A stretch of DNA of 20,000 bases, taken from IMG/VR virus record IMGVR_UViG_3300006924_000006, one strand, 5' to 3'. Numbering within the stretch: position 1 is the first letter of the stretch; each line of letters begins with the position of its first letter. Source of the stretch: an uncultured virus (IMG/VR IMGVR_UViG_3300006924_000006). Its lineage: Duplodnaviria; Heunggongvirae; Uroviricota; Caudoviricetes. The notes under the pieces are model-generated. The model did no database searches. It was not told the DNA's origin and worked only from the letters and a program-made list of their open reading frames with translations. The position numbers and the translations under genes are program-made. This document shows, piece by piece, positions 566 through 14,091 of the stretch.

Positions 566-1420
566 CTAAAAAGGCACATCGTTATTCTTCTCCTGCAATC
601 TCTCGCGCTCTTTCATTCTCCGCTCAATGGCATTAAGCACATATTGTGACTGTGTTCCCATAATAGACGTCAAAAGATGAATCGGAAGCTCTTTCGCTAG
701 CAAATGAAGAACCTGTTCATATTTAGAATCGCTAATAGAGAGAAGCAGCTCATCGTAGTTTGGATACAAAGACTTGTTAGCGATAATTGCCCTAACTCCA
801 TCGTAAGAAGCACTAGAACTTGATTCGCTTCGTATCTTTCTCGCCTGCTTCTTTGTAAGAGAACCTGTCTTTATATATTCCCTGTACCAAATCGACCGCC
901 ACGAATGATGTGGCTTTGGTACTTGTGAAAATAATTCTTTTTCCGCCAACTCCTTAATTGCTTTTGGGTTCTCCACTATACACTTTGCAAGAATGCCGCG
1001 TATTCCTCTTGGAATCCAAGTTGCGGACCTTCCTGCTCCGGAAGAATAAACCTTATTAAAAAGATCAAGCCACACAAATTCCGAGACTTTTTCCGCCGCA
1101 ATATGCGTATACGATGAAGAGTCATTCGCAATTTCTCTAAGATTAGATTTAATATATTCGCTAGAAGTATATTTCTCTATAGCATTCTTCAGAAAAGAAG
1201 ATTTAAAGACCTCTTCTTCTGGAACTAGCTTTATTAGAACCCTGAAGATATCCCCTGTCGCCTTATCGTCTAGAGAAAGGGAGTTCAGAAATACATCTAA
1301 ATGCCCGGTTTTAAACGCTGACAGCCTAATCTCCGAGAGATTCAAATGGTTATTAGCATAATTAGATCTTCCAAAAAGTCTTTCTGCGCCAATCCCTGCA
1401 AGCTCACTGAGAACATCCAT
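566..1420 (-). CDS. Hypothetical helical protein, 284 aa, ending in NNDVPF
   Basis: Long ORF with GGAGG SD; C-terminal region resembles 10393..11178. Confidence 0.8.
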   Translation of the reverse strand: MDVLSELAGIGAERLFGRSNYANNHLNLSEIRLSAFKTGHLDVFLNSLSLDDKATGDIFRVLIKLVPEEEVFKSSFLKNAIEKYTSSEYIKSNLREIANDSSSYTHIAAEKVSEFVWLDLFNKVYSSGAGRSATWIPRGIRGILAKCIVENPKAIKELAEKELFSQVPKPHHSWRSIWYREYIKTGSLTKKQARKIRSESSSSASYDGVRAIIANKSLYPNYDELLLSISDSKYEQVLHLLAKELPIHLLTSIMGTQSQYVLNAIERRMKERERLQEKNNDVPF

Positions 1421-1667
1421 TTAGAACCTCCTTAACTGCAGCGTCAAATACAAGCCTATTATCCTTTAATACCCGAACCTTGCTTTCGTCAGAAAGCCAC
1501 TCCCAGGATTTGAGAATTTCCGGAAGAGGAAGTGTGAAAAACTCCTCTCGAAGAGTTTTATGTTCGCTATTATAAGCGTTTTGAATGGAGTTGATAGCAA
1601 TAGCTACCAACATACTTCTGACATCCTCTGTACTGCGTAATTTTGCGGATTCTACTTCCCTTGACAT
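1404..1667 (-). CDS. Hypothetical protein, 87 aa
   Basis: ORF track; overlaps the start of the next gene; preceded by the conserved intergenic element. Confidence 0.75.
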   Translation of the reverse strand: MSREVESAKLRSTEDVRSMLVAIAINSIQNAYNSEHKTLREEFFTLPLPEILKSWEWLSDESKVRVLKDNRLVFDAAVKEVLNGCSQ

Positions 1668-1695
1668 ATTTTCCCTTTCTTCTTCATAAGTGTCT

Positions 1696-1743
1696 GCCCA
1701 GATATAGTATAGGGCAAGAGCATATTACAATTTTTTTGAAACC
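1696..1743 (-). promoter_or_regulatory. Conserved intergenic element, copy 1 (putative phage promoter A7-GTAATAT-N13-ACTATATCT)
   Basis: 26/33 identity to 10009-10041, followed by the same T7 run on the plus strand; ACTATAT lies about 35 nt upstream of the ATG at 1667. Confidence 0.7.
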
Positions 1744-3341
1744 TAATCTGCCGGCGAATCATAAATCGCTACTTCCGTAGTAAGCAGAATTCCGCCAGAT
1801 GAAGCAGCGTTTTCAAGGCCGGTCCGAACGACCTTGACCGGATCGATGATTCCAGCCTCTACCATATCCTCTTTGAGAGAGCCCTCTAGGGCGTCAAATC
1901 CCATTAGAGCTGAACCAGAACTGATAATCTTTTCCATATGCAAATGATATTCCATTCCAGCATTTTTTAGAATCTGTATAAAAGGAGCCCTCATTGCATA
2001 CCCCACAACCTCGCATCCAACGATCTCCTCTGTAGTCAAATTCGACGTTAGCTTAAAGGCCTCTAGAGCAGGTAGACAGTGAAGCAGTGCCGCGCCGCCA
2101 CCAGGGACAATTCCCTCTTCAATTGCCGCCTTAACAGCATTAATTGCGTCTTCCACCCTATCCTTCTTCTCTTTGACTTCCGCCTCAGATACTCCGCCTA
2201 CTTTAAAGATAGCAATGGAACCAGTTAGAGCAGACAACCTTTGCTTAATCGCAGCAATCTCATACCCCTCAAGCCTTGAGTCTTCCGCTCTAACCTTAAT
2301 GGAATTAACACGCTCCTCTACAGAGGCTTCTGTTCCCGCTCCATCTACAATCGTTGTGTCGTCCCTAGAGACAACAACTCTTCGAGCAGAGCCTAGATCT
2401 GCTATCGTAACAGACTCAAGCGGAGAGCCTGCTTCGTTTGTAAGCAATGTAGCGTTGCAGACTGTGGCAATATCTCCGAGAATATCTCTTCGCATATCTC
2501 CAAACCCCGGCGCCCTAACCGCACAAGACTCCAAGGTCTTGCGTGCCTTATTTAAGACTAAGGTCTGCAGAGCCTCTCCCTCTACAGTTTGTGCAATAAT
2601 AAGAAGCGGCCTTGCCGACTCTGCCGCTGCTTGTGCAACTGACATTATCTCAGATGTAAGAGCAATTCTTCCATCATACACCAGTATTAGCGGATTAGCA
2701 AACTCCACTGTCATTCTGTCTAAATTCGTTGAAAAAATAGGAGAGATATAACCTCGGTCAAATGAAAGACCTTCGGAATAAGAAACACTAGTTTCTGCTC
2801 CTGCAGACTCCTCTACCGAAATCAAGCCATGATCTCCAACCGCAGAGACAACCTTTCCAATCAAGCCTCCTAGCTTCTCATCATTATTTGCCGAGATAAC
2901 CGCAACACTATTTATAATTTCCTCGCTTGAAACTTCCTTGGAAAGCTCTTTGAGCCTTGCGGATACAACTTCTACCGCCCTATCTATACCTCGCTTTATT
3001 AAGACTGGATTGTGTCCTGCTGCGACCATCTTCGAGCCTTCAGTGTAAATAGCTTGAGCCAAAACAGTAGCAGTAGTAGTTCCATCTCCTGCAAGGGAGT
3101 TTGTAGAAGAGGCAACGCTCTTGATTAACTCCGCTCCCATATTCTGTACTCTATCGCCAAGCGTAATTGCCCTAGCAACTGTTACTCCGTCTTTGGTAAT
3201 TAGCGGCGGACCAAACGCCCTCTCTATTGCAGCGTGCCTGCCTCTCGGACCAAGAGTGGCCTTAACTGCGTTCGCAAGTATATCTAGCCCTTCCTGTAAA
3301 CCAGCCCTAGCCTTTGTATCAAACTCAACCTCTTTAGACAT
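1743..3341 (-). CDS. groEL: Group I chaperonin GroEL (Cpn60)
   Basis: TLGPRGR, ITKDGVTVA, AGDGTTTATVLA, APGFGD, EEGIVPGGG and GIIDPVKV motifs; AAGGAG SD; lacks the C-terminal GGM tail. Confidence 0.97.
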   Translation of the reverse strand: MSKEVEFDTKARAGLQEGLDILANAVKATLGPRGRHAAIERAFGPPLITKDGVTVARAITLGDRVQNMGAELIKSVASSTNSLAGDGTTTATVLAQAIYTEGSKMVAAGHNPVLIKRGIDRAVEVVSARLKELSKEVSSEEIINSVAVISANNDEKLGGLIGKVVSAVGDHGLISVEESAGAETSVSYSEGLSFDRGYISPIFSTNLDRMTVEFANPLILVYDGRIALTSEIMSVAQAAAESARPLLIIAQTVEGEALQTLVLNKARKTLESCAVRAPGFGDMRRDILGDIATVCNATLLTNEAGSPLESVTIADLGSARRVVVSRDDTTIVDGAGTEASVEERVNSIKVRAEDSRLEGYEIAAIKQRLSALTGSIAIFKVGGVSEAEVKEKKDRVEDAINAVKAAIEEGIVPGGGAALLHCLPALEAFKLTSNLTTEEIVGCEVVGYAMRAPFIQILKNAGMEYHLHMEKIISSGSALMGFDALEGSLKEDMVEAGIIDPVKVVRTGLENAASSGGILLTTEVAIYDSPAD

Positions 3342-3361
3342 GCGTCTTCTCCTTTAACCTC

Positions 3362-3390
3362 ATATTACCTATAGGTCGTGCGCTTCTCAA
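3362..3390 (-). promoter_or_regulatory. Putative sigma70-type promoter for groEL
   Basis: Minus strand TTGAGA (3390-3385), 17-nt spacer, TAATAT (3367-3362), about 20 nt upstream of the ATG; 10-bp palindrome ACCTATAGGT at 3367-3376. Confidence 0.6.
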
Positions 3391-3734
3391 GCTCCCTCTG
3401 GGGCTTCTGCCTCTTTTTCTATAAGAGACTCCTCTTTCGCCTGAGCTTCTTTCGCGGCCTTCTCTTTGGCCTTTTGCTCTTCCGCTCTTTCAATTCTCTT
3501 AATTCGACCTGTAATTCTCTCTGTAGCAAAAACAAGCTCGTCTTCGTCAAGCTCATCTGCAAAAAAATAAAAAATAGCCTTTCCACCTTCTGTAAGAGAG
3601 GCTTCAAGAGTCTCAAGCTCTTCCTTTATAACATTAATTCTCATCATCTCCCTCAAAAGGGTCTGCCCGGACTCTAACAGAGTCTTATCATCGATACCGT
3701 TAATCATATCCCGAAAGTCATTAAGTTTTGGCAT
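3387..3734 (-). CDS. Hypothetical acidic/coiled-coil protein, 115 aa
   Basis: ORF track; AAGGAAG upstream; E/K/A-rich C-terminus; not GroES-like. Confidence 0.75.
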   Translation of the reverse strand: MPKLNDFRDMINGIDDKTLLESGQTLLREMMRINVIKEELETLEASLTEGGKAIFYFFADELDEDELVFATERITGRIKRIERAEEQKAKEKAAKEAQAKEESLIEKEAEAPEGA

Positions 3735-3795
3735 TTTCTTCCTTTTCTGTACTGCTACTAATAATCTTTCCTTCTATACAAAGGAATAAGTTAAT

Positions 3796-4758
3796 ATGCT
3801 TAATAGATTAAACTCTTTGGAAGCCTATCTCGATGAAGTAGGTCAAAAAGATTCCTCTAATGCTGTTGGATCTCTCTTAAAAATCTGCGAAGCAAATAGC
3901 CTCTCTCTCTTCGATATAAGCAATCCTCAGCTAAAAGCGTGGGATGACTTGCTCCTCAAAATGTATCGTCCTTCGTCGCTTGTCTTTGAAATAAAAGAAG
4001 TTGGAAAGGCCTTATCTGTTCCAGCAAGCAAGCTTTCCGCCTCACTTGAGAAGCTGAACGTCCCAAAGGACGTAGCAAAAAAAGAAGAGCTAATACAAAC
4101 GCTGGCCTCAATTAAGCTAGAAAAAAAATTTGACGAAATTGTCAAATCGGCTGACTGGAAATCTATGCTCTTAAAGGGAGACAGCACAAAGATTAAACCA
4201 AAGTTTTTCGGAAGAGCAGTTCCAGTCGCCGGCGCCCTCATTACTATTGGCGCAGCCACAAAAAATATAACAGAAGCAATTGGCAATGCCAAAGTTATTA
4301 TGAACGAACTTCCTTTGGAGAAATACAATCTATCTCTCACTAAGATATTTTCCCCTGCAGCAGTTGCAATTGGAAGCATTCTATCTGATCAGATCGAACA
4401 AAATAAAGATAATCCAGAGAATCTCTCGGAACTTCTAGACGTTTGCAGAGTTATATCCGCCTTTTATATGGATTTTATATTTGCTCTATCAAATAGTGTT
4501 ATGATGGTAATTGACATTCTAACCGCGCTCTCTGCTCTTCTCGATGGCCCACTTCCAATTGCAGATGTACTTGCTGGTTTGGTTGGGTTCGTATTGAGCA
4601 TGGGAATCATCGGAGCAGAACTCGGAAGCGAATACCTATCCGAAAAATACTGGAAGAATCATTTTGCCAAGATTAAATCTATAGCGATTGAAAATATCCA
4701 GAGGATAGAGAAGTCTTTCTCTACTGCTGAGGATGCTCAGTTGGAGCCTGCTTCCTAG
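3796..4758 (+). CDS. Hypothetical protein with hydrophobic C-terminal helices, 320 aa (possible virion or membrane-inserting protein)
   Basis: Only substantial plus-strand ORF; AAGGA SD; hydrophobic segments RAVPVAGALITIGAA and ILTALSALLDGPLPIADVLAGLVGFVLSMGIIGA. Confidence 0.8.
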   Translation: MLNRLNSLEAYLDEVGQKDSSNAVGSLLKICEANSLSLFDISNPQLKAWDDLLLKMYRPSSLVFEIKEVGKALSVPASKLSASLEKLNVPKDVAKKEELIQTLASIKLEKKFDEIVKSADWKSMLLKGDSTKIKPKFFGRAVPVAGALITIGAATKNITEAIGNAKVIMNELPLEKYNLSLTKIFSPAAVAIGSILSDQIEQNKDNPENLSELLDVCRVISAFYMDFIFALSNSVMMVIDILTALSALLDGPLPIADVLAGLVGFVLSMGIIGAELGSEYLSEKYWKNHFAKIKSIAIENIQRIEKSFSTAEDAQLEPAS

Positions 4759-4888
4759 CAAGAGAGCCTTTCCGGTTCCACCAACTAAGCCACTCTCGCT
4801 CCCACTCTTCGCGATTAACGCGAATTTTGCGCGTTCCTCTTTTCACAAAATAAACAGTAACAGGCCCAACTTCTTCTTCATTTGTCAT
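4721..4888 (-). CDS. Small Trp/Arg-rich hypothetical protein, 55 aa (not in ORF track)
   Basis: ATG 4888 with AGGAG SD, just after the SpoU stop; MTNEEEVGPVTVYFVKRGTRKIRVNREEWEREWLSWWNRKGSLARKQAPTEHPQQ, TAG at 4723-4721. Confidence 0.6.
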   Translation of the reverse strand: MTNEEEVGPVTVYFVKRGTRKIRVNREEWEREWLSWWNRKGSLARKQAPTEHPQQ

Positions 4889-4898
4889 ATACTATCTC

Positions 4899-5447
4899 CT
4901 ATTTGTTCTGAAAAAACTGTCTGCAGTATTCACTCATAACCGCAGTTCCAGCGTGACTAACATTTAGACAATAACCGAGACCATTCATTGGAATAAAAAT
5001 AGAATCATTCTTTAGCGAAATCTCAGCCGGAACACCCGTCTCTTCATTTCCTAAGACAAGCACGATTTTCTCTTCAAAGTTGAACTTGTAATCGAAAACA
5101 CTTTCTGCATCTTCAGTCAGTTCAACCGCAACTCTTTTATATGAGTTATTGTCGCAGAACTCATTAAAGTACATCGGATTAGAAAATGTCTTAAATCGCA
5201 TATAATCATATAGCGAACCGGACCTCGGATTTAGAAAGCTTCTATCCGGCAATGAGCCCATTACGAATATGTCTCTAACCCCAAAACATGCCGCACTTCT
5301 TATTAGAAACGCTAAATTTTCATCAAAAGAAAAACTGACCGTAGCTATTGCCAGCGGAACCTCTATAGCATCCTTTATCTTCTCGCTATATCGCTCACGC
5401 CTTGTTTTGCTTCTTTTTGTGTCTAGAAACATCGGACTTCCAATCAT
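4899..5447 (-). CDS. SpoU/TrmH-family (SPOUT) RNA 2'-O-methyltransferase
   Basis: Motif 1 ENLAFLIRSAACFG, motif 2 LVLGNEETG, motif 3 IPMNG..CLNVSHA. Confidence 0.9.
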   Translation of the reverse strand: MIGSPMFLDTKRSKTRRERYSEKIKDAIEVPLAIATVSFSFDENLAFLIRSAACFGVRDIFVMGSLPDRSFLNPRSGSLYDYMRFKTFSNPMYFNEFCDNNSYKRVAVELTEDAESVFDYKFNFEEKIVLVLGNEETGVPAEISLKNDSIFIPMNGLGYCLNVSHAGTAVMSEYCRQFFQNK

Positions 5448-5906
5448 CTAATCGTTTGTAGAAATCACCTTATAAACTCTGCCAAACTTTGAGAACTTTT
5501 CTCCGAACGAAAGAAGTCTGGCCAGCTTTAAAGCGAAATCTCCCTCCTCATCCTTGTAAGAAGGATTCAGCGCTTTCATCGCAGACTCCAACTCCTCTTT
5601 TGAGGAGCTCCACTTTGCCACAAACTCTTCCGGACTCATATTTGCTGCGGCGAAAAAATAACTTCGATAATCACTCAGATTTGCCGCAGTTACCCCCTCC
5701 TCTTTCGACCACGCTCTTTCTTCTTCCGTTGTCTTTTTAGACTTAGACGCCGTAGAGAGAACTACATCTTGCGAAAGATCTAACACATCAGTGTCTGACC
5801 ACCCGAAATATATATTGGTTATATTATTCTCGGCAGGAACTCGCTCTTCTTTGTAGGCATAAAGTTTGCTAACTTTGTATTTAGACTTGAAATCTGCAAG
5901 CCCCAT
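5448..5906 (-). CDS. Hypothetical protein (probable start MGLADF at 5906)
   Basis: ORF track 5448..5951; ATG 5906 has a GGAGGAG SD and follows the glutamine synthetase stop. Confidence 0.7.
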   Translation of the reverse strand: MGLADFKSKYKVSKLYAYKEERVPAENNITNIYFGWSDTDVLDLSQDVVLSTASKSKKTTEEERAWSKEEGVTAANLSDYRSYFFAAANMSPEEFVAKWSSSKEELESAMKALNPSYKDEEGDFALKLARLLSFGEKFSKFGRVYKVISTND

Positions 5907-5907
5907 T

Positions 5908-6951
5908 CTACTCCTCCGCTGAGCACACCACAGAGATGAGAGTAGCCGCAACTCTATATGGATTTGCGTTTGAATTAGGACGCCTATCTTCGAAGTATCC
6001 CGCGCCGGCCCGCTTTACATGCCAAGGAATTCTGACTGACGCACTACGATCTGAGACTCCAACGCGAAACTCATCAAGGCTACAAGTCTCATGTTTGCCA
6101 GTAAGCCTTCTCTCTAAGCCGACTCCATAAGTGGACTTCGCCAAGTCAATCGCACTCTCTTCCGCTAAAGCCTCGCACGCTTTATTAATGGGAGTTATCC
6201 CACCAGCCTCACGCATAGATGCCGTACTAAAGTTGGAGTGCAAGCCGCTTCCATTCCAATCTCCGCAAACAGGCTTCGGGTCTAGACTTATGCTTACTTC
6301 CTGTAACTCACAGACTCTCTGCAAAATAAACCTAGCCACCCAAAGATGGTCACAAGCCTGCACTGCATTAGTTCCTGGGCCACCTATTTGGTACTCCCAC
6401 TGTCCAAGCGCAACCTCTGCGTTGATTCCTACGATTGAAAGCCCAGAATTAATACAGGAGTTAAGATGTAGCTCAGAAAGATTCCGGCCGACAACATTCT
6501 CTGCTCCTACTGCACAATAATAAGGACCTTGTGGCCTCATATCTTCAGAGTGGCCTAACGGCTCATCATCTTTCATCATAAAGTATTCTTGCTCAAATCC
6601 AATAACGGGGTCCTTATCATTGTGCTTGAGCATTTCGTCAATCAGCCTTGCCCTATAATTGGTCTCGTGTGGAGTCATATCCGTATTTAGAACATCACAA
6701 AGAACAAGGACTCCATTTTCACGATTTGAGTCTAAACACGCAAAAACTGGCCTTAAAACTAAATCTGATTCATTTGATTCCGCCTGCTTCGTGCTAGAGC
6801 CATCAAAGCTCCAAACTGGCAAATCCTTTAGAGAAAGGGTCCACTCTTTCTCTTCCGTTGAAAGGGTAAGAACCCTGGTCTTTGACCTTAACTCCTGAGT
6901 CTCATATCCGTCGAGCCAAATATATTCTGCCTTTATGGTAGTTCTGTTCAT
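5908..6951 (-). CDS. glnII: Glutamine synthetase type II
   Basis: AEYIWLDG, WSFDGSST, GFEQEY, PQGPYYC, INAEV, QWEYQIG, DWNGSGLH, RLTGKHET, RSASVRIP, YFEDRRP; 347 aa matches GSII length. Confidence 0.95.
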   Translation of the reverse strand: MNRTTIKAEYIWLDGYETQELRSKTRVLTLSTEEKEWTLSLKDLPVWSFDGSSTKQAESNESDLVLRPVFACLDSNRENGVLVLCDVLNTDMTPHETNYRARLIDEMLKHNDKDPVIGFEQEYFMMKDDEPLGHSEDMRPQGPYYCAVGAENVVGRNLSELHLNSCINSGLSIVGINAEVALGQWEYQIGGPGTNAVQACDHLWVARFILQRVCELQEVSISLDPKPVCGDWNGSGLHSNFSTASMREAGGITPINKACEALAEESAIDLAKSTYGVGLERRLTGKHETCSLDEFRVGVSDRSASVRIPWHVKRAGAGYFEDRRPNSNANPYRVAATLISVVCSAEE

Positions 6952-6958
6952 CTTTATC

Positions 6959-7816
6959 CTATTGTAAATTCAAAAAAGTTTCTTCATACTCATCTAATGT
7001 CTTTTGCTTTAGCATAGACGCAAAGCTCATAGAGTGAAAGTCATTAGAAATACTGCTCATGTCTAAAACAGATTTTGTATAAACGATCTTACTCTCTTCG
7101 CCCTTTAGATCAATAAACTTTATCAGGCTATAGCTTTTCTCATAAGCCTTGCGAAACGTATCATCCTTCAGCTTCTGACTCAAAAGGCCTTCTGTCTCCA
7201 ATATTTTAGAAGCAGTCTTCTTTCCGACTCCCCTTACCCCAGGAATATTGTCAGCCTTATCTCCCACCATTGCCTTCCAGGAAACATAATCATAGCTCGT
7301 ATTTTCACGATACTTTTTGGAAATAGGATTATAAAGCTTTACAGTGTCCGGATACTTATTAAGAAGCTGAATAAAATCAGTATCAGAAGAGATTATCGTT
7401 ACGTCATCGTCCCTATGAAAGTAATCAATAATATACTGAACTAAATCATCGCATTCTTGCTCTGGATGGAATACAGTTCTGATGGGATAATCCTTTTGAA
7501 CAGAAGAGATTATCTTTCTCTTCTGCCTATGGAAAGACTCCCAATATTTAACGATATCTGGATTATCCGTATCTATCTTGCGATTTCCCTTATAGTTGGG
7601 GTCTGCCTCCAACCTCGCTGCGGGCTTTCCGTCTAACGGAAAATAAACAATATCTGGAGAAAATCTAGATACAGTCGCCCTGAGAGTCCTAAAAAAGTTG
7701 TAAACAATCTGGTGCTCTCCGTCAGCCAAACCACCGCCCCACTGAAAGCGGCACCTATGAATCATATTATAGGCATCAATGATCAGAATTTTTTTAGATA
7801 ATGCTTTTGATATCAA
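6959..7816 (-). CDS. Stand-alone 5'-3' exonuclease / flap endonuclease (PolI N-terminal, T4 RNase H-like)
   Basis: LIIDAYN, YKGNR, ECDD, SSDTDFIQL, GDKADNIPGVRGVGKKTA (H3TH); probable TTG start at 7816 with GGAG SD (track start 7867). Confidence 0.92.
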   Translation of the reverse strand: MISKALSKKILIIDAYNMIHRCRFQWGGGLADGEHQIVYNFFRTLRATVSRFSPDIVYFPLDGKPAARLEADPNYKGNRKIDTDNPDIVKYWESFHRQKRKIISSVQKDYPIRTVFHPEQECDDLVQYIIDYFHRDDDVTIISSDTDFIQLLNKYPDTVKLYNPISKKYRENTSYDYVSWKAMVGDKADNIPGVRGVGKKTASKILETEGLLSQKLKDDTFRKAYEKSYSLIKFIDLKGEESKIVYTKSVLDMSSISNDFHSMSFASMLKQKTLDEYEETFLNLQ

Positions 7817-8471
7817 CTGCGTTCTCCTTGGCGTCCTTAACTGTCTTTCCACTGCCATGTACCTCAAACATTATGATGAGATCTTTAGTCTTATCATTAA
7901 CGGTACACATGGTACAGGTATTACAGGAAATATCGCTCTTGCCTTCAACTCCATGCCTTGCAGGACAAAGCACTGCCTTTTTTCCTGAAAGCTCCAAGCT
8001 TTTGGGAATCCCGCTTCCCTTTACAGCTAAGGAGGTAGACCATCCCATGGAAATTGCCTCGCTTAATTCTTCTAGAGAATTACAAGACGCCCTAAACCAC
8101 TTCTTGAGTGGTCGAGAGGACTTTTTCTTCCAGGCATGTGTATATCCAATATTAATTAGACCCTCTGCCTCAACCTGCTTGCACTCAGAAATGGTGTCTG
8201 GAACATCGCCAACGATATCTCCAGCGACTCTATGCCTAACAATCCTCGCAGACTTATGCCTCTTCTTCAAAGCTTCAGTCAAAGATTTGGCCTTAAGCTT
8301 TCCCGTCTCAATATTCTTTCCCAAGACCCTTAGGTAAAAAAGACCCCAAGCATAACAGCCGCCGCTCTTAAAAGAGCAGGAGTCTGGACACGAACTCAGG
8401 GGAGAATATGAGGCAAGCACTTTGCCTATCTTTTTATCTGAAGACCTCGAAACCCAATGAACAGTTCTCAT
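7794..8471 (-). CDS. Cys-rich phage protein (GP88/DUF7227-like), possible Fe-S or Zn binding
   Basis: SCPDSCSFKSGGCYA, RHRVAGD, GYTH, RASC, LCPA, SCNTCTMC; probable ATG 8471 with GGAG SD. Family name from recall. Confidence 0.65.
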   Translation of the reverse strand: MRTVHWVSRSSDKKIGKVLASYSPLSSCPDSCSFKSGGCYAWGLFYLRVLGKNIETGKLKAKSLTEALKKRHKSARIVRHRVAGDIVGDVPDTISECKQVEAEGLINIGYTHAWKKKSSRPLKKWFRASCNSLEELSEAISMGWSTSLAVKGSGIPKSLELSGKKAVLCPARHGVEGKSDISCNTCTMCTVNDKTKDLIIMFEVHGSGKTVKDAKENAVDIKSII

Positions 8472-8521
8472 ATTTACAACTCCAACAGCTAGTGGCACCT
8501 TTCGTTCGGATTAACGGACTA

Positions 8522-8553
8522 TGATGCTGCGGGAAGCATCTCCCGCAGCATCA
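8522..8553. repeat. 13-bp perfect inverted repeat (hairpin) in an intergenic gap
   Basis: TGATGCTGCGGGA (8522-8534) / TCCCGCAGCATCA (8541-8553), 6-nt loop; no U tract follows on the minus strand. Confidence 0.8.
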
Positions 8554-8575
8554 AAAGTATCAGCCGATACGACTC

Positions 8576-8773
8576 TTACTCAGAAAGAGTTTCGTTTAGA
8601 AAACTTCGTAGAGCCTGAGCTTCACGAATAGTCATATTGACAGCATGACTCGGAACTCGCCAGTCTTCTGATTGAACTACAATCTGAAGCCGATTGCTTC
8701 CGGCCTGCTTACGCGGGTCTCCATTTCGTAGGTTAAGAGTTAGCGACTTAGTCTTCTTAGTTCTATTTAGCAT
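8576..8773 (-). CDS. Small basic hypothetical protein (probable start MLNRTK at 8773)
   Basis: ORF track 8576..8791; ATG 8773 lies just inside the 3' end of the upstream gene. Confidence 0.7.
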   Translation of the reverse strand: MLNRTKKTKSLTLNLRNGDPRKQAGSNRLQIVVQSEDWRVPSHAVNMTIREAQALRSFLNETLSE

Positions 8774-8969
8774 CTGAATTTTCCTTTCCAAAAATCATTA
8801 CACTTGCTCTTTTTGGGGAGCGTTTCATTTTCTTTGCAGCCTTATTTCTCGGCTTACTCGTTGGATTACTTGCTGTCGCGGCAGATAATAGCACCGAAAC
8901 ATCATTCTCATCAAAAGGGGTCTTATCTATTCCGACTAGATCCTTTGATATGCTCTTCTCTACAACCAT
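8763..8969 (-). CDS. Small hypothetical protein, 68 aa
   Basis: ORF track; AAGGAAGGGA upstream. Confidence 0.65.
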   Translation of the reverse strand: MVVEKSISKDLVGIDKTPFDENDVSVLLSAATASNPTSKPRNKAAKKMKRSPKRASVMIFGKENSDAK

Positions 8970-8993
8970 CTATCCCTTCCTTTTAGATCTTAT

Positions 8994-9263
8994 TTACCCC
9001 TCTGCCAGCCAGCCTGAGCGCCGCTCCTCAAGAGAGATAATATCTTCAACAATTGCCATGCAGATACTTCCATCAGCAGTATGGTAATTAATGACGTTAG
9101 AGCTGTAATCAACAGACTCTACCACTCCCCTCTCTCGCTCTCCCTTTCGGGAGCGACTATTGACCCGGATGCAATCTCCGGCTTCAAAGTCCTTAATATG
9201 AAAGCAGTTAAACTCATCATACGGCCGACCATATAGCTTGGAAAACTCTACCTTATTACTCAT
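8994..9263 (-). CDS. Hypothetical protein, possible SH3/KOW-like barrel (probable start MSNKVE at 9263)
   Basis: FEAGDCIRV...RGVVESVD pattern; the longer track start runs through a hairpin-rich leader. Confidence 0.65.
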   Translation of the reverse strand: MSNKVEFSKLYGRPYDEFNCFHIKDFEAGDCIRVNSRSRKGERERGVVESVDYSSNVINYHTADGSICMAIVEDIISLEERRSGWLAEG

Positions 9264-9357
9264 CACATTCTCAATCGTTAAGGGTTCATCCTGCCAAAAT
9301 GGCAGAGCCCCGCATACCAACATGGTATTCGCGGAACAATTCGAGTCCAGAGATTAT

Positions 9358-9984
9358 TTAATCTCTATTCTCGTTTTCAATAATCTTCTTTCTCAGCACC
9401 TTATGGATACCCGGATTTACCCGCAAAGCACTTGGGAGCAAAACATGCCGGATATAGTTCCTCATATATGAGGTATTGGAGTTCGACGGGTCTTCCACAT
9501 AAGGGACGCCCTTTCTTTTGCACCAAGATAGTAACTCAGCCTTTCTAGTAGAAAGAAACGGTCTTACATAGTTGTCTCGACGCCTTGGGATTAGCCTTGG
9601 AGTCCCATGTAGCGAGGTAAAAATCCAAGTTTCAACCAAGTCGTCAAGATGGTGGCAGGTTACAATTGGGATACCCTTACCTACAGTCGAAGAGAACAGA
9701 TTGAAAAAAGCATAACGCTGCTCTCTCCAATAGCATTCCTTCGACTCTCTTGGGCGCAACTCTCGGGTCAACTTCCCAGCGAACAAAGGCAGCCCCTTTT
9801 CTTCGGCATATTCCCTTACGAAGCTTTCTGCTTCATCTGCGTGCTCCGACCCGTGATTAAAATGCAGAATGGTCACGCTTCTCTTCCCTCCATTATGAAG
9901 AAAGTCTAACGCGGCCATACTGTCTGCACCCCCCGATACTGCTACGGCAATGTTTTCGGGAATCTTTTCCAAGAGAGTAATCAT
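9358..9984 (-). CDS. tilS: tRNA(Ile)-lysidine synthetase, catalytic domain only
   Basis: PP-loop AVSGGADS, HFNHG, TCHHLDDLVET, VRPFL, EDPSN..YMRNYIR; 208 aa, no C-terminal domains. Confidence 0.92.
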   Translation of the reverse strand: MITLLEKIPENIAVAVSGGADSMAALDFLHNGGKRSVTILHFNHGSEHADEAESFVREYAEEKGLPLFAGKLTRELRPRESKECYWREQRYAFFNLFSSTVGKGIPIVTCHHLDDLVETWIFTSLHGTPRLIPRRRDNYVRPFLSTRKAELLSWCKRKGVPYVEDPSNSNTSYMRNYIRHVLLPSALRVNPGIHKVLRKKIIENENRD

Positions 9985-10008
9985 GCTCGCCCTTCGCGGC
10001 TGGGTTCC

Positions 10009-10055
10009 GCCTAGATATAGTGCAGGACAAAATTATATTACGTTTTTTTAGAACC
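10009..10055 (-). promoter_or_regulatory. Conserved intergenic element, copy 2 (putative phage promoter)
   Basis: Matches 1696-1743; ACTATAT about 31 nt upstream of the tilS ATG. Confidence 0.7.
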
Positions 10056-10103
10056 ACACCTATCCCCTTGCCCACCGTGCATTACCTGCCCTTGGCCCCT
10101 CTT

Positions 10104-10361
10104 CTAAGAAGAGAGTCTGTTTAATTCAAACAAAATAGGAGAAACCCCTCCTTCTACTAGCTCTACGATCTCCCACGTTAAAGCTTCATCTGCTTTATTT
10201 CCATATTCTATTTGCCTTTTAATAGCATTAACTGCATCGAACTTTCTTGTCCATATTGCACCACGACTAGTCCAAGATCCATAAGCTCCCTTTGTAAGAA
10301 ACTTTCCAATGCTTGGATCCCTGACTTTATATCCAAAAATTTTTTTCTTTTCTTTCTTCAA
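10104..10361 (-). CDS. Hypothetical protein, 85 aa
   Basis: TTG start with GAGGAG SD; phage-like YKVRD...FLTKG...W...G.IW pattern. Confidence 0.7.
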   Translation of the reverse strand: MKKEKKKIFGYKVRDPSIGKFLTKGAYGSWTSRGAIWTRKFDAVNAIKRQIEYGNKADEALTWEIVELVEGGVSPILFELNRLSS

Positions 10362-10392
10362 AATAACTCCTCAAGAGAGGTATTGTCTAACT

Positions 10393-11178
10393 CTAGTTCA
10401 CTTCAAAAATTCTCTTAATAGCGCTCTCGACCCTCTTGCTACCCCCCGCCCCTCCTAGGAAGAACATTGCCTCCTCCGGAGTAAGACGCTTAACTAGCTC
10501 CGTTAGAAATAAATCGTTAATAACTCCATGAGTTCCGGCCTTTAACTTAGAAATAAATGGCTCAAGATCACTTCGTGTCGCAGACCCCAAAGCTCTTCTC
10601 TCCAGATAAGAAATTCTTTGCCCAATATCTTTTGGAAGAAACTGCTTATAACAATTGTCAAATCCAATTCTCGTTATGAGTTTTGTTTGGACGTTTCTCT
10701 TTAGAGGACGAGAAACTTGATTTGTGAGCATTTTTTTGGCAATATTAACTGGCAAAATTGAAACGACTCTAGATCTAACTCTTTGGTCCCTAGAGTCTAT
10801 CAGCCTCTTAGACATCTTTATTCGCTCTTCTGACGATACAGAGTCTAGAACTATGATCGCGAAAATGCCCTGAGAATAATTAGTTAAAATCTTTCTATCA
10901 TTTTCATTATAACAGAAGGCTTTGACAAGGTTCTCAAATACGGCCCCAAACCCTTTCTTCTTATCTTTGTTAGAATAAGTCCAGCCAGGATAATGATTCC
11001 ATCTGGAATCGCTTACAATATCCTTCTTATGCTTATTAGACAACGTCTTCCAGTATTCTAAAACCCGAGGCTCGTCTGAATACTCGACTCTTGACCAGCG
11101 CCACCTCCTCTCCTTCTTGCTCAAGGTTAAAAGCAACTCCATGAACTTATCGTACGGCTTATTAGTTTTCTTCGGCAT
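10393..11178 (-). CDS. Hypothetical basic helical (HEAT-like) protein, 261 aa
   Basis: Long ORF with AAGGA SD; LIDSRDQRVRSRVVSILP is HEAT-like. Confidence 0.78.
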   Translation of the reverse strand: MPKKTNKPYDKFMELLLTLSKKERRWRWSRVEYSDEPRVLEYWKTLSNKHKKDIVSDSRWNHYPGWTYSNKDKKKGFGAVFENLVKAFCYNENDRKILTNYSQGIFAIIVLDSVSSEERIKMSKRLIDSRDQRVRSRVVSILPVNIAKKMLTNQVSRPLKRNVQTKLITRIGFDNCYKQFLPKDIGQRISYLERRALGSATRSDLEPFISKLKAGTHGVINDLFLTELVKRLTPEEAMFFLGGAGGSKRVESAIKRIFEVN

Positions 11179-13248: not shown

Positions 13249-14091
13249 CTAAAACTCCCTAATTCCATACTCGGAAGCTAGCCGCTTTTTTAGACGACTA
13301 ATCGCTCTGCTTTCAATCTCCCTTACCCACTCTCTTGAAATCCCCATATCTTTCGCTAGGTCCCTCAGAGTTCTCGGCTCCTCACAAAGCCTTCTGCTCT
13401 TGAGAATCTTCTTCTCTTCCTCTGGAAGCTTATCGATCAAAGATCTTAAGATAGAGCTCATAACATTGTGGTCAAAAGCAGCAGAGCCTATATCCTCGTT
13501 CGTTCTCTCGTCTGGCAATAAGTCTACCCTTAATGTCTGACTATCCTCTCCCTTTCCGACAGGAGTATCGAGCCTTACGTCATAACCTCGCAGAGAGCCT
13601 CTCATCATTTCTACAGAGGAAGGCTTTACGCTTAGGGTCTTTGCAATGAACATAGTCTTATCTCTGCCGATAAGGCCTTTTTCCTCCGCTATTTTCGACG
13701 TCTTCGAGAAAGAAGAGAATAAAATCCTGTCATCTTGTGTTCCTCCGAGCCTAACAATAGACCTATGCCTCATGACATGCTGCCTCATATTAACCCTTAC
13801 CCACCACATAGCGTATGTAAGAAACCCAACACCCCTCTCAGGGTCAAACATTCCTGCCGCCTTTAATAGGCCTGCCATACCCTCTTGCACCAAATCTCCA
13901 TAAGACAGATGCTTATTAAGCTTCTTAAATCGATAGGCCTCTTTCGTTACGATTCTCATATTTGAAAGGATAACTTTATCGAGAGCTGCCTTGTCTTTGC
14001 TTTCTTGCCACTTTTTCACTAGATCCAACTGACTCTCTGATGACAGTATTGGATTGTCTTTGATAATTTTGTCTATTAGCTCTGTATTCAT
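13249..14091 (-). CDS. Sigma70-family RNA polymerase sigma factor, RpoH (sigma32)-like
   Basis: Region 2 DLVQEGMAGLLKAAGMFDPERGVGFLTYAMWWVR; degenerate RpoH box IVRLGGTQDDRILF; region 4 HTH TLRDLAKDMGISREWVREIE; 280 aa. Confidence 0.92.
   Translation of the reverse strand: MNTELIDKIIKDNPILSSESQLDLVKKWQESKDKAALDKVILSNMRIVTKEAYRFKKLNKHLSYGDLVQEGMAGLLKAAGMFDPERGVGFLTYAMWWVRVNMRQHVMRHRSIVRLGGTQDDRILFSSFSKTSKIAEEKGLIGRDKTMFIAKTLSVKPSSVEMMRGSLRGYDVRLDTPVGKGEDSQTLRVDLLPDERTNEDIGSAAFDHNVMSSILRSLIDKLPEEEKKILKSRRLCEEPRTLRDLAKDMGISREWVREIESRAISRLKKRLASEYGIREF

Follow-up and report, generated by a model that had tools for sequence, protein, structure and literature searches.

Jumbo phages without an RNA polymerase of their own likely use phage-encoded sigma factors at phage-specific promoters (PMC13282480; PMC7824862). 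Here we describe a candidate for such a system in a 20,000-nucleotide stretch of an uncultured virus of the Caudoviricetes (IMG/VR record IMGVR_UViG_3300006924_000006; hereafter the window), which holds two copies of a promoter-like element and the gene for an RpoH-like sigma factor. In Bacillus phage SPO1, host sigma-A serves the early genes, Gp28 the middle genes and Gp34/Gp33 the late genes (PMC13401047). In Salmonella phage 7-11, the sigma factor SaPh711_gp47 reads GTAAtg-(16)-aCTA, and its gene lies deep within its own regulon, for which read-through and feedback have been proposed; between 7-11 and phiEco32, promoter positions are conserved and promoter sequences are not, the sigma factor having been acquired independently (PMC8948821). 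T4 middle promoters combine a host -10 element with a phage box at -30, the MotA box, by sigma appropriation (PMC2988021). Among cellular factors, sigma-32 of E. coli reads CTTGAA at -35 to -30 together with A-11 (PMC10216364), and the RpoH1 consensus of S. meliloti is CTTGAA-N15-16-CCTATAT (PMC4843759).

Results

A repeated, oriented element in the non-structural arm

A preliminary description of the window had reported two minus-strand repeats with 26 of 33 nt in common, and direct reading bears this out (the figure refers to the best 33-nt window in register). Both repeats read A7-(TT or C)-GTAATAT-N13-ACTATATCT-N-GGC on the minus strand. With the first T of TATATC numbered -12, GTAATA occupies -34 to -29, (G)CCCT-n-(C/T)AC -21 to -13 and TATATC -12 to -7, in addition to the A-tract. 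Site 1 lies 39 nt ahead of an open reading frame (ORF) of 87 amino acids (aa) and site 2 lies 35 nt ahead of tilS. We call the element class B; the class names A, B and L used below, and the early, middle and late timing attached to them, are labels inferred from gene content. The two sites, the first gene behind each and the sigma gene are as follows.

1695..1737, minus strand: class-B promoter-like site 1, directly following the groEL stop and in the matching place before the same gene in 6 other genomes; A-tract 1737-1731, -35-like GTAATA 1728-1723, extended block GCCCTATAC 1715-1707, -10 TATATC 1706-1701, predicted start purine ~1695, ATG of the next ORF at 1667
10008..10049, minus strand: class-B promoter-like site 2, before tilS and in the matching place in 6 other genomes; A-tract 10049-10043, GTAATA 10041-10036, extended block GTCCTGCAC 10028-10020, -10 TATATC 10019-10014, predicted start purine ~10008, tilS ATG at 9984
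1404..1667, minus strand: 87-aa ORF without assigned function, first gene behind site 1; a 17-member family across relatives
9358..9984, minus strand: tilS (tRNA lysidine synthetase, N-terminal domain; TIGR02432 above cut-off; Pfam), first gene behind site 2
13249..14091, minus strand: RpoH-like sigma-70-family factor of 280 aa with Pfam regions 2 and 4; candidate reader

These two copies belong to a set of 11 in this phage of the element GTAATA-N16-TATATC, with a CCCT-n-CAC block ahead of the -10, all intergenic, on the coding strand and in the non-structural arm. A matrix built solely from the two window sites ranked the other two copies of the 72.5-kb genome (G000) third and fourth among 144,938 windows. 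In G001, a 211-kb record whose sigma factor is 100% identical, 8 sites score 42-59 bits, all on the coding strand, and the next match scores 9.1 bits; 60 shuffled sequences gave no match. Contig L149, which overlaps G001 at 99.98%, contributes the remaining 3 sites. The matrix ranks, the high-scoring G001 sites and the empty shuffles together argue that the repeats are not due to chance. An ungapped comparison of G000 with G001 found 3,501 differences in 72,514 positions, the sigma gene and the four shared sites being identical. A search of G001 with variable spacers gave no additional class-B sites, and of the 38 viral matches to the strict pattern, most of those outside G001, G013, G014 and G017 score low. 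G000 has one further, degenerate class-B site at C1:43388 (minus strand), in tandem with the AAA-ATPase site and 100 nt below it; G002 and G003 have intact copies of both.

G-34 and T-33 are present in all 11 sites and T-7 in 3 of them, none has a TGn, and a pyrimidine-purine step lies 4 nt past the hexamer. Conservation among the G001 sites is block-wise, with a variable stretch at -28 to -22. All sites are confined to the 147-224-kb arm, which carries small and metabolic genes; there are none in the first 147 kb of G001, where structural and replication genes lie. Two sites precede tRNA-Tyr and tRNA-Arg by 23 and 58 nt. The element is thus repeated well beyond two copies and oriented ahead of genes. 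Copy number, single orientation, fixed spacing and positions at operon heads, in tRNA leaders and at orthologous loci give good support to the proposal that it forms a promoter-like class private to the phage. Judged from these patterns, the class-B sites are very probably phage-specific promoters of a non-late class. A search for RNA data over positions 1000-10500 of the window returned none, which speaks neither for nor against this reading. That they serve instead as operators or as replication or recombination sites is scarcely credible given their strict orientation, the fixed two-box spacing, the T-12 A-11 core, the placement of the pyrimidine-purine step, and positions ahead of genes and tRNAs that are kept at orthologous operon heads.

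Concerted turnover between relatives

Class-B sites precede tilS in 7 genomes and the 87-aa ORF in 7, and their sequences follow the genome rather than the gene. Over -36 to -13, sites of the same genome are 0.72 identical (n = 24), whereas orthologous sites elsewhere are 0.41 identical (n = 32), as are unrelated sites (0.41, n = 97); the nearest neighbor of an orthologous site is a site of its own genome in 15 of 18 cases. The -35 word is GTAATA in G001, YTRATA in G002 and G003, TTnAAA in G004 to G006, TTGCAY in G007 and TTGACn in G010. That likeness within a genome so far exceeds likeness between orthologs points to a lineage-specific reader of class B.

Another promoter-like site in the same genomes behaves differently. 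TTGATA-N15-AG-TATA lies ahead of the orf110-hsp20-khpA block as a single copy (C1:27826, minus strand, in G000; 132041 in G001) and is invariant in 12 of the 16 genomes covering the block; G054 has a degenerate form of it, and it is missing from G010, G052 and G053. Since this site is invariant across 12 of the same lineages, host differences alone fail to explain the turnover of class B. The site could be an alternative target for the RpoH-like sigma factor or a host-type promoter.

Could the host holoenzyme nevertheless read class B unaided, with a genome-specific extra consensus arising from homogenization of PeSL-like cassettes or from differing hosts? The early cassettes are near-identical over 30-45 bp, at 15-30 per genome; PeSL cassettes recombine (PMC4122927); T4 early promoters bear extra consensus beyond the sigma-70 elements (PMC2988021); in S. 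meliloti, the motifs of RpoH overlap those of RpoD (PMC3616915); and T-7 is found in 14 of the 15 G010 sites, whose consensus is TTGACn-N16-TATAnT. However, GTAATA matches TTGACA poorly and T-7 and TGn are rare or absent in the 11 sites of this phage. On its own strand, each window site fails a sigma-70 consensus scan and does not match canonical TTGACA-N17-TATAAT at four or more of six positions per hexamer with T-7, although the consensus of the host itself may differ. The block-wise conservation around a variable -28 to -22 resembles the pattern left by a reader more than a conversion tract, and the invariant hsp20-block site shows that host-type signals occur here without such drift. We therefore consider reading by the host enzyme alone improbable.

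Three promoter-like classes

De novo motif searches in the relatives, on which class assignment is based, distinguish three classes. Class A comprises, per genome, 15-30 near-identical cassettes of 30-45 bp within a dense island where small genes lie on both strands; a GGGCAAAA-n2-TTKACA-like box often stands ahead of the cassette. Class B consists of scattered sites at operon heads. Of 251 structural-block ORFs examined across six genomes, 32 have class L, CTAYTAWT, at a distance of at most 90 nt and with no upstream element, as compared with 7 occurrences on the reverse strand and 15 in 3,149 coding windows. This word recurs in G031, G052 and G053, bringing the total to nine genomes, and lies at 1-98 kb in G001, e.g., upstream of 41873-45154 and 1971-6560. 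The word presumably resembles the streptococcal ComX box.

Class counts were made after dropping rows that fell inside genes or were opposite-strand palindrome partners (one each in G001, G002, G004 and G005; two in G010; three each in G003, G006 and G008), and the rule used assigned one class-B site of G013 to class A. Class A of the G001 lineage is represented by G013, a close relative with a GTAAT-type class B. G-33 separates A from B in G007 (14/15 versus 0/15) and G005 (14/19 versus 0/10), so that TTG of class A is more distant from the -10 by one base, the border between the classes in these two genomes and in G008 having been set by position after the sites had been seen.

The GGGCAAAA-n2-TTKACA-like box itself has 15-46 copies in several early islands, in both orientations and often at about -56 to -41 of class-A cassettes (G013 58-77 kb; G007 4-35 kb; G005 109-128 kb; G008 25-52 kb); it also occurs at 132103 in G001, and GGGAGAAAAAG is its variant in G054. 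At five positions of G028 (2682, 10821, 17931, 25316 and 25424), the conserved part, TTTCGGATCT, lies at -22 to -13 and the -10 hexamer itself varies.

Sigma factors of the phage family

The window sigma factor has both region 2 and region 4 and is closest to the RpoH group among known families, as judged from its sequence. Three NCBIfam RpoH models are its best models, yet all score below cut-off (203.8/315, 183.2/323.1 and 176.4/241 bits), and its best Protein Data Bank match is chain E of 8HKC. At the positions that set sigma-32 specificity, H107 is replaced by W, K130 by Q, R266 by W and Q269 by E, while E265 and R268 are kept; the RpoH box QRKLFFNLR aligns to DRILFSSFS, and the HW wedge is WW. 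By these measures, neither the RpoH model cut-offs nor the RpoH box and the residues at 107, 130, 266 and 269 are matched. No cultured phage was found with a sigma factor more than 32% identical to it.

Region 4.2 does read REWVREIE, as first described, but the W that had been singled out is not special to this phage: all 47 aligned members of the clade, which comprises 93 proteins, have W255, so it was rejected as the cause of the unusual -35 word. What is peculiar to this phage among the homologs is E258 together with Q119. Position 258 is K in 61, R in 25, Q in 5 and E in 1 of the 92 homologs with a match there, the single E being that of this phage, and the K130 equivalent, Q here, is mostly R in other clade members. 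The sigma tree is a quick tree only. E258 corresponds to the Q269/Q589 position, and it accompanies G-34 in 11/11 sites here versus 1/6 in G002 and 0/8 in G003, the sister phages.

Two other sigma factors are encoded in the family.

C1:12239-13057 of G000, minus strand, and 116454-117272 of G001: second sigma-70-family protein, 272 aa, in the replication block outside the window
G008 129733-130308; G031 223171-223710; G052 32644-33246; G053 226210-226800: third, ECF-like sigma factor

The second sigma factor has regions 2 and 4 (TIGR02937, 61 bits; cut-off 42.9) and is present in 13 of 13 genomes covering its block, including three without the RpoH-like gene; its recognition helices are near-invariant, with a Cys-rich insertion in some lineages. 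The third evolves fast and sits between a DisA/DAC-domain gene and ribonucleotide reductase. Each of the four records that cover both loci (G008, G031, G052 and G053) carries the RpoH-like or the third sigma factor. The third was rejected as a universal reader of class B, being absent at the syntenic site in G013.

Which protein reads class B?

If class B has a reader of its own, which of these proteins is it? The RpoH-like sigma factor seems the likeliest single reader, for class B keeps the sigma-32 register (in G001 to G007 and G010, with the early cassettes one base upstream) and E258 goes with a fixed G-34. The tally of two sigma factors for two non-early classes was also counted in its favor. 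From these features we infer the following scheme of promoter activity, timing and pairing of proteins with classes. The two repeats and the other copies would be middle-phase promoters heading non-structural operons, read by the host RNA polymerase core with the RpoH-like sigma factor. Region 4.2 would bind the -35 to -30 word (C/T)GTAAT in the register of sigma-32 on CTTGAA, regions 2.4-3.0 would contact the CCCT-n-CAC block and TATATC, and melting at A-11 would lead to a start at a purine 5-6 nt downstream. In all nine genomes checked, class-B sites precede the sigma gene (one of them by 11 kb in this phage), which might be held against such a role; the location of the 7-11 gp47 gene inside its own regulon answers this objection. 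Read-through from early cassettes would supply the first RpoH-like sigma factor, which would then amplify its own expression, and the second sigma factor, from the downstream block of this arm, would next read CTAYTAWT, as in an SPO1-like two-sigma cascade. The evidence thus strongly favors the private class proposed in the preliminary description, and its assignment to the product of 13249-14091 is plausible and not established; we give that pairing a little less than an even chance.

Several findings weigh against the pairing. The RpoH-like gene is missing from G052 (99% complete), G053 (100%) and G054, a 158-kb record spanning the syntenic region; G052 and G053 were among 29 further records searched for the gene, and a six-frame search gave only the third sigma factor. 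Yet G052 keeps 19 sites of the form CTYARA-N16-G-TAAT, three of them at orthologous operon heads, and G054 keeps WTRATA-N16-TATA at four orthologous heads with a profile closest to that of the sigma-bearing G002 and G005, so the motif does not consistently co-occur with the gene. Conversely, G031 has the sigma factor and places TTGATA 18 nt from the -10. A single REW(V/I)RK helix accompanies CTRATA, TTGCAY, TTGACn and GTGATC. In partial Mantel tests over eight lineages, the whole motif showed no significant correlation with the sigma factor (r 0.36, p 0.10), nor did the -35 with region 4.2 (r -0.07, p 0.62). The link between E258 and G-34 goes back to one event, on a long branch, and no base is contacted directly by Q589 in the structure of sigma-70, although a redesigned residue at that position contacts G-34 in models (bioRxiv 2022.11.29.518332). 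Lastly, classes A and B share about -26 to -5 within each genome where both were seen and differ upstream, a sharing that one class-specific sigma factor does not explain.

The absences count as one event, since G052, G053 and G054 form one split with support 0.999 in the core tree (FastTree, nine genes, 18 genomes, with G008 and G013 left out). The de novo search of G053 found no clear class B, and three candidate sites there were picked by eye alone. The 16-nt spacer was weakened as a signature of the RpoH-like sigma factor, as the register is found in G052 and G054 as well and is not kept in G031.

The shared -10 half suggests a second arrangement, akin to T4 middle promoters, in which the host primary sigma factor would read the TATA -10 common to early and class-B sites and a phage protein at -34 to -13 would supply the lineage-specific part, leaving the RpoH-like sigma factor to serve, e.g., the hsp20 operon or host heat-shock genes. 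A common -10 with a differing upstream box is what such a system would have, and the architecture persists in the three sigma-less relatives. Of the 13 genomes from the sigma-bearing side of the tree, 12 have the invariant hsp20-block site, and G052 and G053 lack it; this fits that alternative task for the RpoH-like protein, but the site is present, if degenerate, in sigma-less G054 and missing in sigma-bearing G010. Moreover, the conserved blocks lie at differing offsets in different lineages, and in G052 and G053 the -10 has changed to G-TAA(T/C) and the third sigma factor is carried, which fits sigma replacement. The family-wide candidates for a cofactor, a 146-aa stand-alone sigma-4-like helix-turn-helix protein (G001 97427-97867, minus strand; 67-90% identical) and a 65-71-aa protein described below, are conserved, not fast-evolving, and neither was identified as the cofactor. 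Pfam scans of 209 proteins gave no match to MotA or AsiA, the small early ORFs being mostly outside those scans. On balance, we regard a T4-like arrangement as rather unlikely.

The second sigma factor might also read class B, leaving the late genes to be served otherwise. It has both DNA-binding regions and, unlike the RpoH-like protein, is found in the relatives that lack the latter. However, its near-invariant helices fit the invariant late word better than the variable class B, the last class-B site is 30 kb ahead of its gene, and motif distance shows little relation to second-sigma distance (r 0.23, p 0.14). We find this reading distinctly improbable, and the second sigma factor is instead a candidate for the late factor reading CTAYTAWT.

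Returning to the RpoH-like sigma factor as the reader, its absence from G052 and G053 could reflect a role possibly taken by the third sigma factor. A broader version of this idea is that the family swaps sigma factors while its middle promoters stay at fixed operon heads: in one branch, a captured RpoH would have taken the place of an ECF-like factor, all promoter copies would have been rewritten in step in each lineage, and in this phage K258E would have re-specified the first -35 base to G. As a full account of the history, this seems to us doubtful.

Neighboring genes and other observations

Other genes of the window that adjoin the two sites are the following.

1743..3341, minus strand: groEL paralog, ending at site 1
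566-1420, then 260-532: genes after the 87-aa ORF behind site 1
8576..8791, minus strand: small protein of 65-71 aa in the block behind site 2; 18 members, including sigma-less relatives

The groEL paralog is upstream of site 1 and hence outside its control. Behind site 2, the block runs on from tilS through a 5'-3' exonuclease and glutamine synthetase. For the 87-aa ORF there was no Pfam, PHROG or Atlas match, and Atlas and Foldseek gave no clear family, as was also the case for the 65-aa protein. The latter has a predicted PUR/PC4-like fold (the model of the G002 ortholog has a pLDDT of 82), and its best structural match, Pur-alpha (Z 6.4, root-mean-square deviation 2.6, 57 aligned), is within the range of common arrangements; on this predicted fold, it is a weak candidate for a cofactor.

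The phage capsid protein is 53% identical to gp27 of Bacillus phage G, and the phage also has DnaE and two GroELs. Searches for the host gave no assignment. The phage EF-Tu (G001 204300-205487; 54-60% like cellular ones) is 54-60% identical to the best match in eight of nine diverse genomes, KhpA homologs indicate no clear lineage, and a scan of genome contigs gave cellular sigma factors only, at ≤31%.

Elsewhere in the family, a tmRNA-like gene lies behind a class-B site in G004 to G006 (L066 near 12230). Upstream of the ruvC-like gene at 101808-102347 of G001 is a hairpin whose loop is AGTA(T/A)AAT in six genomes while its stem varies; G052 and G053 differ. A paralogous array of repeat proteins that start with M(S/T)KPICKT and share an upstream stretch is found at 199-211 kb in G001, 70-88 kb in G013 and 73-80 kb in G010, and assemblies break there. 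G013 carries a PrkA-YeaH-SpoVR block and a Tad6 anti-Thoeris match (16-24 kb and 41796-42254).

Discussion

Matched sets of sigma factors and promoters are rarely defined, and here one uncultured family combines three classes of promoter with three families of sigma factor and a natural case of loss. The exact templates and residues are testable in vitro without culture of the phage. With the RpoH-like protein as reader, the family would exemplify re-targeting of a heat-shock sigma factor and would provide orthogonal parts; failing that, a lineage-specific reader of the spacer would still have to be sought. Should the idea of sigma swapping be correct, nature would have provided in this family a library of sigma-promoter pairs, orthogonal to one another and descended from a heat-shock sigma factor.

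How does this system compare with those already described? The kind of system is known from SPO1 and 7-11; this phage family, its motif set, the RpoH origin and the sigma turnover were not found in the literature, and published accounts of the family's promoters were not found either, subscription journals lying outside the search. As in SPO1, there are three promoter classes and two phage sigma factors, with the late sigma gene in the middle region (PMC13401047). In SPO1 gp28 is an early gene, whereas the candidate middle sigma factor here is RpoH-derived, encoded behind class-B sites and dispensable in part of the family. T4 and PeSL cassettes provide another parallel, in that early and middle promoters have a -10 in common and differ in the upstream word, and dense early cassettes lie in a variable region (PMC2988021; PMC4122927); unlike T4, the phage described here has a phage-G-like capsid protein and DnaE. 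RpoH (sigma-32) is the best family and structure match and shares the register and the CTATAT -10 core, but the -35 word here is GTAAT, not TTGAA, and the targets are phage operons.

The nearest likeness in words is to 7-11, where gp47, like the candidate reader here, is a phage sigma factor with a private two-box promoter of nearly the same words, GTAAT ... ACTA (PMC8948821). The spacing differs: GTAA-N19-CTA has 13 matches in 50 kb of 7-11 (5.4 expected), as compared with GTAA-N17-CTA here, which has no match in the same 50-kb stretch. The 7-11 promoters are late, whereas class-B sites head non-structural blocks, and gp47 (ECF type, 185 aa) aligns significantly with neither the RpoH-like nor the second sigma factor described here. 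Given the spacer, 2 nt longer in 7-11, and the unrelated gp47, the likeness in words between the two phages would reflect convergence.

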